Source of the DNA: a virus
Taxonomy: Duplodnaviria > Caudoviricetes
Virus record (IMG/VR): IMGVR_UViG_3300030433_002369
Coordinates: 1 to 47,004 of that record
Reading direction: 5' to 3' (one strand)
Length of the DNA stretch: 47,004 bases
Of this stretch, positions 4,034-39,414 are shown piece after piece (the first letter of the stretch is position 1; each line of letters starts with the position of its first letter). The notes beneath the pieces were generated by a model that worked only from the letters and a program-made list of their open reading frames with translations, had not been told where the DNA came from and did not search any database. Made by a program: the position numbers and the translations under genes.

Positions 4034-4074
4034 CATCAGCGCGGTAAGGAACTTAACATTTCTTTACCTCCTGC

Positions 4075-4150
4075 ACACCCCCTAAACCGAGACCTATAGG
4101 GTGTATAAAACACGTCTCTCATACCAACCCTGGAGGGTAGGGTTGGAATA
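4075..4150 (+). ncRNA. Structured psbA leader, PhotoRC-II-like RNA motif
   Basis: ACACCC(4075)/GGGTGT(4099) and GAGAC(4089)/GTCTC(4114) pairings cross, forming a pseudoknot; hairpin CCAACCCT/AGGGTTGG follows. Its location upstream of a phage psbA fits PhotoRC-II. Confidence 0.6.
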
Positions 4151-4193
4151 TTTTACCTAGTGTTCCCCGCACTTATACATAACCCTTTTTCAA

Positions 4194-10544: not shown

Positions 10545-10573
10545 TTGACTATATAGAGAAAGGGCACTATAAT
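10545..10573 (+). promoter_or_regulatory. Sigma70 promoter of the riboswitch transcript
   Basis: TTGACT-N17-TATAAT; predicted +1 near 10580, at the first nucleotide of the aptamer. Confidence 0.85.
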
Positions 10574-10579
10574 GTGCTC

Positions 10580-10814
10580 ATCGTTCATCCAACATGGTAA
10601 CACTACTGTTGGCACTTACCTTAGCCCATCACGATCCGTCACCTTATGGGTGGCATATGTCTTGTGAAAGGTATCTACAGAAGAGCGTTGAGATTCAATT
10701 AGATGGAGATCTGGACTTTAGGTCTAAACGAAATCTAATTTTGTATCTCAAATCTAAAGTAGAGGGGAGGTGTGATACGGTGTTATCATAGGACGCAAGT
10801 AGGTCGCGGAACGG
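10580..10814 (+). ncRNA. Glutamine riboswitch-like aptamer 1, split by an ORF in its P2 loop
   Basis: The 5' half ATCGTTCATCC (10580-10590) and 3' half GGACGCAAGTAGGTCGCGGAACGG (10791-10814) mirror the intact aptamer just downstream. Confidence 0.65.
10594..10791 (+). CDS. 65-aa protein nested inside the riboswitch aptamer
   Basis: Open frame with a hydrophobic N-terminus (MVTLLLALTLA) and two Cys. Confidence 0.6.
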   Translation: MVTLLLALTLAHHDPSPYGWHMSCERYLQKSVEIQLDGDLDFRSKRNLILYLKSKVEGRCDTVLS

Positions 10815-10881
10815 ATCGTTCATCTCTTCGGAGACGCAAACGACTGAAGGAACGGGGCGTAAATCCCTAGTATTTCAGGAG
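10815..10881 (+). ncRNA. Glutamine riboswitch (Downstream-peptide/class II-like) aptamer 2
   Basis: P1 CGTTC(10817)/GAACG(10850); P2 TCTC-TTCG-GAGA; CGCA; pseudoknot CTGAA(10844)/TTCAG(10874) abutting the SD; upstream of a YRG peptide gene. Confidence 0.8.
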
Positions 10882-10889
10882 TAACTACC

Positions 10890-11054
10890 ATGAACACCTT
10901 ATCACTTATCAAAAAGCAAATCGACAAGGCAGCAGCACTGCACGATGCACAAGTCCTCGTTACTAAGTATCGTGGAGTTGATTGCAAAGTGCATCAGGCA
11001 AGTGAGGAAACTCACGGCACCTACTGCTATCGTGGTCGCACTTACGTTAAGTGA
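10890..11054 (+). CDS. DUF4278-like small protein with two YRG motifs
   Basis: MNTLSLIKKQIDKAAALHDAQVLVTKYRGVDCKVHQASEETHGTYCYRGRTYVK; SD AGGAG at 10877; below the ORF-track size limit. Confidence 0.75.
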   Translation: MNTLSLIKKQIDKAAALHDAQVLVTKYRGVDCKVHQASEETHGTYCYRGRTYVK

Positions 11055-11058
11055 GATC

Positions 11059-11154
11059 ATGGAAGCACTACAAGTAACTGGGATCGTATCCCTTTCGTCT
11101 GTAGCGTTTCTTGGTTTCATCTATGGAGAGTTAGTTCTCTTACATAGAACGTGA
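11059..11154 (+). CDS. 31-aa membrane peptide
   Basis: MEALQVTGIVSLSSVAFLGFIYGELVLLHRT; starts 4 nt after the upstream stop. Confidence 0.55.
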   Translation: MEALQVTGIVSLSSVAFLGFIYGELVLLHRT

Positions 11155-11181: not shown

Positions 11182-11207
11182 AATGGGAGGGTAACCTCCC
11201 ATTTTTT
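11182..11207 (+). terminator. Rho-independent terminator closing the nitrogen module
   Basis: AATGGGAGG-GTAA-CCTCCCATT followed by a T run. Confidence 0.8.
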
Positions 11208-38942: not shown

Positions 38943-39027
38943 GGGAGCGTGGCGGAATCGGTAGACGCACCAGACTTAAAATCTGTTGACCGTAAAGGTC
39001 GTGGGGGTTCAAGTCCCCCCGCTCCTA
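38943..39027 (+). tRNA. trnL: tRNA-Leu(TAA)
   Basis: Acceptor GGGAGCG/CGCTCCT; anticodon loop CT-TAA-AA; long variable arm; GTTCAAGT T-loop; CCA not encoded. Confidence 0.95.
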
Positions 39028-39342: not shown

Positions 39343-39414
39343 GCCTCTGTAGCTCAGTGGTAGAGCAGGGCTTTTGTAAAGCTCAGGTCGCAAGTTCAAA
39401 TCTTGTCGGAGGCT
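39343..39414 (+). tRNA. trnT: tRNA-Thr(TGT)
   Basis: Acceptor GCCTCTG/CGGAGGC; D-arm GCTC/GAGC; anticodon loop TT-TGT-AA; GTTCAAAT T-loop. Confidence 0.95.

Follow-up and report, generated by a model that had tools for sequence, protein, structure and literature searches.

Protein-coding genes within the P2 loops of a predicted crossed double glutamine aptamer in cyanophages

INTRODUCTION

Riboswitch aptamers are commonly regarded as compact non-coding domains that precede the gene under their control, and search methods take this for granted. The locus described here raises the question of whether an aptamer can enclose a whole gene. In a cyanophage sequence, a complete ORF appears to take the place of the P2 hairpin loop of a glutamine-type aptamer. 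We asked whether this gene is real, how the RNA around it folds, and which genes such an element might control.

The locus lies in a 47-kb virus record, the whole of which (47,004 nucleotides) is referred to here as the window. By gene content it represents a T4-like cyanomyophage; the ORFs named from their translations are psbA, psbD, transaldolase, thyX, phoH, and T4-like genes. The window also carries a PhotoRC-II RNA (RF01717, 80 bits) at 4065-4159, before psbA, and tRNAs at 38943-39027 and 39343-39414.

RESULTS AND DISCUSSION

Promoter and downstream gene

All features of the locus are on the plus strand. A promoter scan returned three sites in total, which is the chance level; the one at this locus is a predicted sigma-70-type promoter (TTGACT-17-TATAAT, 10545-10573, with the -10 ending at 10573) that has 11/12 consensus matches. 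Its predicted +1 near 10580 would give the ORF a leader of 14 nt devoid of a Shine-Dalgarno (SD) sequence, as a previous sequence-only reading of this DNA had proposed. An inverted repeat (10562-10579) is centred on the -10 hexamer.

Upstream regions of 156 related elements were examined. A -10 was found in 106 of them, and in 89 of these 106 the -10-like hexamer lies 7-8 nt before C1, the first base of the outer P1 strand; a -35 is found in 93. Given this spacing, the mRNA likely starts at the aptamer. Directly before the aptamer, 138 of the 156 distinct regions have a hairpin of at least 5 bp (46.6 in shuffles), and the -10 is inside this hairpin in 89 of the 106 regions having one. Further upstream, 70/156 regions carry a motif which we take to be T4-late-promoter-like; late transcripts would begin with the upstream hairpin. 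The motif GTA-N8-TAC, presumably the NtcA-box consensus, is found 40 nt before the aptamer in 18/156 regions (1.4 in shuffled sequences; partly expected from the palindrome), among them those of loci L003, L027, L038, L043, L046, L325, and L327. In the host, an NtcA site is reported to lie over the start of an IF17-like gene (PMC6212724).

RNA libraries from three studies yielded contigs over the locus, which shows its presence in such libraries rather than a transcript, its start, or its level. One such contig of 420 nt corresponds to 10597-11016 with 8 differences. The absence of cover upstream of 10587 carries no weight, and contigs can reveal neither start nor strand.

Downstream of the element, an SD (AGGAG) and a 54-codon DUF4278/IF17-like gene are found at 10877-11054. 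The gene matches phrog_545 (E 5e-28) and, below the cut-off of 25.3 bits, PF14105 (22 bits, E 2e-4). A link between the DUF4278 and IF17 families has been described (PMC6212724), and host glutamine switches of class I and class II are reported to turn DUF4278 genes on (PMC6212724; PMC6698751). The DUF4278 gene is likely to be the conventional target of the switch. It is followed by a 31-codon hydrophobic ORF (11059-11154) with no family match in Pfam, PHROG, and NCBIfam profile searches, and by a hairpin with a T6 run (11184-11207). The latter was read from the sequence as the likely operon terminator; a terminator scan of the window made no call there.

The nested ORF

The 5' end of the element reads ATCGTTCA-TCC at 10580-10590, and GGA follows at 10791-10793, with exactly 200 nt in between (10591-10790). 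These 200 nt hold an ORF of 65 codons (10594-10791), and the G of its TAG stop codon is the first G of GGA. The initial reading described this anatomy correctly, including the complementarity between the first ten nucleotides of the ORF, ATGGTAACAC (10594-10603), and GTGTTATCAT near its end (10780-10789), which involves one G-U pair.

In a profile search, the ORF was assigned to phrog_6471, and 53 phage records match it. Among 244 candidate stretches from IMG/VR, 171 encode a relative, and the best 80 of these 171 were analysed. The 93 distinct coding sequences of the family have 61-69 codons, with third positions varying most. The median dN/dS is 0.17, and none exceeds 1 (1707 of 4278 pairs, with dS 0.1-1.5). 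Purifying selection, a check proposed beforehand, is thereby indicated, and comparative sequence evidence speaks for a real, conserved gene in the P2 loop of a glutamine-type aptamer.

In an AlphaFold2 model of the protein (pLDDT 80), the N-terminus forms a hydrophobic helix, and a helical hairpin is bounded by the conserved cysteines C24 and C60. One might speculate that these cysteines form a disulphide and that the protein is exported. The protein belongs to no Pfam or NCBIfam family, and its model has no fold match in PDB; matches in BFVD are to uncharacterised phage proteins only, and those in the protein atlas to unnamed viral clusters only. An unannotated distant relative (37% identity) is encoded between hli and psbA of podovirus P-GSP1 (L326:1201-1347), devoid of flanking aptamer strands.

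A crossed double aptamer

The locus had been read as two aptamers placed side by side, the first of them a free-standing one at 10580-10814. Both P1 strand sets are identical in the window, which is why we turned to natural variants among the relatives. Variants were sought in either 3' strand, the 5' strands being left free. The parsed set, from all loci, comprises 201 distinct double aptamers, and 39 of them deviate from the common form; it omits 9 of 20 loci from later scans, in which four strands could not be assigned. Watson-Crick pairing is kept in 39/39 variants when the first 5' strand is matched to the last 3' strand and the two strands between them to each other, and in 0/39 when the strands are matched side by side. 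The crossed variants occur in three junction backgrounds; there was also one discordant match, which lacks a 5' strand. When the inner junction strand was scanned for A, two of the 94 matches proved to be aptamers.

The fact that all 39 variants pair crosswise indicates that the partner of 10582-10586 is 10850-10854 and not 10809-10813, and that 10580-10855 would form one unknotted structure. The gene-holding aptamer is then the outer core, which ends at 10855, so the first half does not stand as a free aptamer. The outer P1 has its 5' strand (C1-C5) at 10582-10586. P2 (10588-10590 with 10791-10793) encloses the 200 nt with the gene and is backed by covariation and by the minimum free energy (MFE) fold. 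The outer junction (10794-10801) consists of C17-G18-C19-A20 and the AGUA strand of the E-loop; it deviates from the RF01739 consensus only by a C for G at the long-range pair. P3 (10802-10806 with 10841-10845) is common to both cores, and its loop carries the inner, circularly permuted core (10809-10839). This comprises P1' (10809-10813 with 10817-10821), a P2 with UUCG loop (10823-10834), which is an empty slot, and CGCAA (10835-10839). The outer core is completed at 10846-10855 by the GAA strand of the E-loop, the 3' strand of P1 (10850-10854), and G10855, the predicted long-range partner of C10796.

The distribution of motifs agrees with this. The first half has AGUA without GAA and the second half GAA without AGUA, and the short strands adjacent to them are complementary. 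These are the strands of P3, which covary: in 157 distinct tandems, position 1 is A-U in 144, G-C in 9, and G-U in 4, while position 5 is G-C in 148, G-U in 4, A-U in 4, and C-G in 1. There are 23 distinct strand combinations, and 0/5000 permutations were as well paired. Covariation counts given here are of sequences, not of independent events, except where a tree was used.

Two independent aptamers at 10580-10814 and 10815-10855 would be in line with several observations: either half folds alone in silico, with 10815-10858 scoring 34.3 bits; an alignment from 2010 enters such halves as separate aptamers (supplement of PMC2864571, as far as available); and the identical P1 strand sets of the window permit both pairings. 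Against this stand the natural variants, none of which keeps the side-by-side pairs, and the splitting of both the E-loop (AGUA/GAA) and the two P3 strands between the halves. We thus assign hardly any probability to the side-by-side arrangement. A version of it with a pseudoknotted P3 was likewise dropped, because the P1 variants pair crosswise. In folding models, the crossed fold is the cheaper one in 49/49 cases, an unfair comparison since P3 can be included only in the crossed fold.

In summary, comparison with relatives indicates that 10580-10855 is one double aptamer, consisting of an outer glutamine-I junction with a gene in its P2 and a permuted second core on its P3. We are nearly certain of the architecture itself, that is, of the nesting and the crossed double core.

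Two slots for genes

The two P2 loops are referred to as the first (outer) and second (inner) slot. Among the 80 best relatives of the nested ORF, 78 match the junction pattern, and in 75 of these the 5' strand precedes the start codon, the contig start cutting it off in the other three; in the two outside the pattern, the same strands are recognisable by eye. A further sample was drawn on the RNA junction only (120 loci with 121 junctions, from 3 of 64 parts of the IMG/VR collection). Here, the first slot holds a short hairpin in 84/121 junctions, a spanning ORF in 33, and a long loop without spanning ORF in one; the 5' strand was not found in three. For the second slot, 102 cases were resolved, 69 of them long and 33 short. 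In relatives of the window gene, the second slot is filled by an ORF (phrog_504 and kin) in 63/66 resolved cases.

When all loci are pooled, a set in which the ORF family of the window is over-represented, there are 332 distinct P2 loops, of which 104 are shorter than 60 nt, none has 60-139 nt, and 228 are long. An ORF that starts 3-10 nt past CGUUCA and ends at most 18 nt from the junction is found in 225 of the 228 long loops. In 131 of these 225 units, the frame crosses the junction, with the stop codon 6-13 nt beyond.

All four slot combinations were found, and the slot state differs among close relatives. Cultured phages Syn9 (gp196/gp197), S-TIM5, and Syn19 have annotated hypothetical genes in both slots. 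Several further loci are of note. In L156 (712-1257, minus strand; the contig is shared with L452), a second double aptamer follows directly behind the first. Its P2 loop holds a 182-codon endonuclease VII-like ORF (phrog_1035, E 1e-17), and its inner core looks degenerate. L318 has two double aptamers in series on one contig. A single hairpin sequence recurs among L206, L215, L220, L261, L286, and others, occupying the one or the other empty slot against unrelated backgrounds, as if it were swapped as a unit.

The DNA of the element matches 436 phage records, which are without exception labelled as phages of Synechococcus or Prochlorococcus, as "Cyanophage", or as "Marine" phages; its strands are estimated to occur in 3,600 IMG/VR stretches. 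In cellular genomes (9 of 64 parts scanned), the architecture occurs in 1 of 120 pattern matches, a Prochlorococcus single-cell contig (L393) with both slots filled and phage-like neighbouring genes. The profile of the second-slot protein is found in 1 of 301 host-family genomes, on this same contig, which is probably from an infecting phage. In host class-II loci (30 fetched), P2 has 14-19 nt with no ORF inside in 13/13 that were parsed. As judged from these comparisons, nesting is both real and widespread in cyanophages.

Overall, the nested proteins fall into at least 11 clusters. Profile comparison relates the window family to cluster 2 (probability 80-85) and cluster 2 to the main second-slot family (94-96), while a direct comparison of the window family with the latter reaches only 39-50. 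Because most clusters are linked in such a chain, it is likely, albeit not proven, that most nested proteins belong to one superfamily of two-cysteine helical hairpins.

Folding of P2 around the gene

As predicted in the initial reading, P2 and the start/stop helix are closed in the MFE fold of 10580-10814 (z -2.89; 0/200 shuffles equally stable). In the ORF-bearing units, P2 position 3 pairs in 224/225, compared to 81% in shuffles (0/2000), with C-G in 167, U-A in 48, U-G in 6, and A-U in 3. Position 4 pairs in 83%, compared to 56% in shuffles (0/2000). A tree computed from the ORF interior requires no fewer than 7 changes on starred branches for the C-G form of position 3 and no fewer than 6 for the U-A form; having 138 columns, this tree is poorly resolved, and recombination may add changes.

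Comparison of ORF ends supports selection for pairing between them. Native ends pair with -10.0 kcal/mol and swapped ends with -7.2 kcal/mol (76 distinct pairs; 0/2000 permutations), and native end pairing beats mid-ORF windows in 67/76. In the second ORF family, end pairing is weak and beats mid-ORF windows in 53/100. P2 closure has a probability above 0.5 in 36/40 native units and in 15% of codon-shuffled ones, and upon synonymous recoding, with the protein fixed, it drops from 0.86 to 0.29. The native fold is more stable than its synonymous recodings in 25/25 rows (24 distinct, the window being counted twice). According to these models, codon choice in the nested ORF favours a fold which closes P2.

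The start/stop complementarity fared less uniformly. It is present in the window, with one strand at 10594-10603 and the other at 10780-10789, but its register is not fixed in relatives (58% of cells pair in the register of the window; 51 sequences), and the pairing probability of the AUG is at most 0.42 in 4 of 24 folded relatives. For 51 aligned units corresponding to 10582-10814, RNAalifold did not predict P1 and P2. It instead gave an inner zipper between codons 7-11 and 55-60, with 95% paired and both partners altered in 4/11 pairs; since this count was drawn from the same alignment as the prediction, it is biased towards structure.

Riboswitch class and ligand site

An Rfam search of the window returned nothing at gathering level at 10580-10855. 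RF01739 matches 10815-10858 with 34.3 bits (E 1.3e-5), just under its gathering score of 35. This model was also applied to nine loci. L126, a natural relative with both slots empty, which stands in for the scoring of a loop-deleted element, was matched as a single outer aptamer above the gathering score (43.6 bits), with a 38-nt insert in P3. L220 and L525 were likewise matched as single outer aptamers, with scores under the threshold. In L144, L171, and L181, the model found each half on its own, and for the ORF-filled loci L139 and L324 it gave no match at E 0.05.

The element has several characteristics of glutamine-I aptamers. The conserved P1 strands CGUU(C/G) and (G/C)AACG are found at 10582-10586 and 10850-10854, and both P2 and P3 of the three-way junction covary. 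The outer core has the E-loop (AGUA at 10798-10801, GAA at 10846-10848), which is absent from the inner core; AAA replaces GAA in 32/157 tandems. The long-range pair below P1 corresponds to C10796-G10855 and has class-II polarity. The position of G10855 is a G in 199/201 double aptamers, and because the pair is invariant, the pairing as such is predicted rather than seen to covary. The position before a DUF4278 or nitrogen gene is also as expected: an ORF containing the YRG motif follows in 129 distinct tandems.

In the crystal structure of a class-II aptamer, the ligand is contacted by C1, G2, G18, C39, G40, and the C19:G41 pair (PMC6698751). The corresponding bases C1, G2, G18, C19, C39, G40, and G41 are all present in both cores of the window, and G41 is a G in 225/225 ORF-bearing units. 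The pseudoknot helix of RF01704, between the linker and sequence 3' of GGAACGG, is missing: the model scores 25.7 bits, compared to a threshold of 33, with the helix deleted in the alignment. We consider the element a genuine variant of the glutamine riboswitch that is common in phages and for which glutamine sensing is predicted.

The conserved strands could also have another role, as repeats for the exchange of gene cassettes or as an RNA-stabilising scaffold, rather than as part of a ligand sensor. The four slot combinations and the variety of protein clusters would fit this, and exchange by homologous recombination at conserved strands is plausible. Evidence against this is that the ligand-contact bases, the long-range pair, and the E-loop are kept, that P1, P2, and P3 covary as helices, and that the downstream gene is the usual target of the family. 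We regard this explanation as very improbable.

Possible modes of control

The anatomy suggests how the predicted sensor might act on its nested gene. Transcribed from a host sigma-70 promoter, the mRNA would start about two bases before C1. The outer P1 strand would be 8-12 nt before the nested AUG and within the footprint of an initiating ribosome, so that initiation and the ligand-bound fold would exclude each other. An elongating ribosome on the nested ORF would unwind P2. P2 folding and translation would thus be mutually exclusive on one molecule at a given time, as was proposed from the sequence alone. Because 276 nt have to be made before the fold can close, early ribosomes would translate the gene and hold P2 open. 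At high glutamine, in a nitrogen-replete host, the zipped ligand-bound form would win, with the nested gene off and the IF17-like gene on, as for host gifB. We lean slightly towards the view that glutamine clamps the 5' end of the mRNA to the far junction, which would shut down nested initiation and likely free the DUF4278 gene.

Folding models bear on this in part. In ligand-free models of 49 leaders, the inner P1' and both P2 helices form, while the outer P1 and P3 do not (0.01-0.07) and are thus left for the ligand to stabilise. Enforcing the aptamer opens the DUF4278 AUG in the window (from 0.18 to 0.56) and in three of four slot classes; in the both-empty class, it closes slightly (from 0.45 to 0.39). 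With the aptamer enforced, no opening of the DUF4278 SD was seen in the models. For the nested AUG, the unpaired probability in the window is 0.08 in the free fold and 0.02 with the aptamer enforced; for 12 relatives with both slots filled, it is 0.13 in either case. Since the nested AUG is mostly paired even without ligand, control would more likely be exerted by locking the 5' leader into the outer P1, or by kinetics, than by a glutamine-driven closing of the stem over the AUG, as put forward in the initial reading.

For the same reason, the nested gene may be a tolerated passenger only. The element would then be a working switch for just the DUF4278 gene, with translation of the nested gene not set by glutamine; small genes would have settled in neutral P2 loops, served by a strong promoter, and would have evolved a harmless fold-back. 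The slots are often empty and change state among close relatives, and with the first slot empty in 84/121 junctions, the switch does not need the gene. The nearly equal AUG pairing in free and enforced folds points in the same direction, as does the endonuclease VII-like ORF in the P2 loop of L156. Homing endonucleases are found in intron loops. On the other hand, the start codon is 3-10 nt past the P1 strand in 225/225 units, so that a bound aptamer would cover the initiation site, whether or not this was selected.

Evidence against a mere passenger also comes from the linker of the inner slot. This begins with GAG in 109/161 ORF-filled slots and in 0/40 empty ones; within the commonest junction type, it does so in 99/100 filled and 0/7 empty slots. 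Together with G40-G41, the linker makes GGAG about 10 nt before the inner AUG, that is, an SD which overlaps ligand-contact bases. This is indirect evidence that nested ORFs are translated and would be positioned for occlusion. On balance, we consider the passenger explanation unlikely.

Translation could also be an input in its own right. Ribosome traffic on the nested gene would hold P2 open, and the DUF4278 gene would switch only when low translation coincides with high glutamine; the element would be a two-input gate, and the nested ORF both a leader peptide and a protein. The location of the stop codon within the 3' strand of P2 would suit such a gate, as would the reading of the ORF through the junction in 131/225 units. 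Yet conservation of the protein, with a dN/dS of 0.17 and two conserved cysteines, resembles that of a folded product, and pairing between the ORF end and the DUF4278 start is no better than with shuffled downstream sequence (8/13 and 5/16 relatives). A two-input gate is thus considered improbable. A reciprocal switch by this latter pairing, which is seen in the MFE fold of the window, was rejected as a general mechanism on the same relatives.

To return to the clamp, comparison of relatives shows the crossed fold, the nesting, selection on both protein and RNA fold, the presence of the ligand-contact bases, and two exchangeable slots. With somewhat less than an even chance of being right in full, we tentatively propose the following for this crossed double aptamer of cyanophages. 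Its P2 loops would be exchangeable gene slots. The sensor would enclose the genes that it turns off and would turn on a downstream gene resembling glutamine synthetase inhibitors, so that the nitrogen state of the host would flip a three-gene operon from one output to the other on a single mRNA.

Relation to known systems

ORFs also occur in the loops of group I introns and in domain IV of group II introns, structured RNAs that likewise tolerate a protein gene in a peripheral loop. In contrast to these, the phage RNA is a predicted metabolite sensor for which no splicing is known, and its nested start codon lies directly next to the core helix of the sensor.

Glutamine-I aptamers (glnA RNA, RF01739; leader of Synechocystis gifB/IF17, PMC6212724) share with the phage element the P1/P2/P3 junction, the AGUA/GAA E-loop, the CGUUC/GAACG P1, a long-range pair under P1 (G23-C60 in the host RNA), and a downstream DUF4278 gene. 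The element described here, which occurs in phages and is missed at the gathering score of Rfam, differs in that P2 encloses a whole gene, P3 bears another core in circularly permuted form, and the long-range pair has the C-G polarity of class II rather than G-C. With glutamine-II (Downstream-peptide RNA, RF01704; PMC6698751) it shares the ligand-contact core. It lacks the downstream pseudoknot helix, and host class-II loci have a short, ORF-free P2 (13/13). For glutamine-II, molecules in the crystal are reported to exchange strands, and an RNA assembled from two pieces to retain binding (PMC6698751), which suggests that the core tolerates rewired strands.

Direct-occlusion riboswitches (SAM-II, preQ1; PMC10907184) are comparable to relatives with a filled inner slot, where the predicted SD uses bases of the ligand pocket; there, however, the regulated gene is downstream, while here it is inside the aptamer. 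Tandem glutamine riboswitches, with two cores before one gene, have been listed as 157 doublets and 4 triplets and classed as pseudo-cooperative (PMC9481103); the available text of that study mentions no crossed P1, shared P3, or nested ORF. Tandem glnA RNAs are also mentioned in PMC2864571. Six nested-start motifs were not found in its alignment file, although gap characters may have masked them. Glutamine riboswitches in phages or marine genomes are covered by PMC9004378, PMC9964418, and PMC12379486, with neither feature noted in the text available, and the accessible parts of PMC10907184 and PMC12510878 contain no ORF in an aptamer and no crossed cores.

The initial reading knew of no such gene-in-aptamer architecture. 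In accordance with this, the full-text literature, to the extent accessible (subscription journals and bioRxiv supplements are outside its coverage), describes neither an ORF inside a glutamine aptamer nor crossed glutamine-aptamer cores. A natural tandem was reportedly tested by Ames and Breaker in 2011, which may bear on the crossed fold. What appears to be new is thus the presence of whole genes inside P2, together with the crossed double core, within a known riboswitch family.

Rfam misses the phage element because its aptamer domain spans a whole gene. By the crossed fold, "tandem" glutamine riboswitches are to be re-read as single molecules whose cores have a helix in common. Provided that the switch works, it would suggest that other riboswitch classes may hide around genes, and it would provide a direct handle on how marine phages sense the nitrogen state of their hosts, for which the cultured phages with both slots filled, Syn9, S-TIM5, and Syn19, are at hand.
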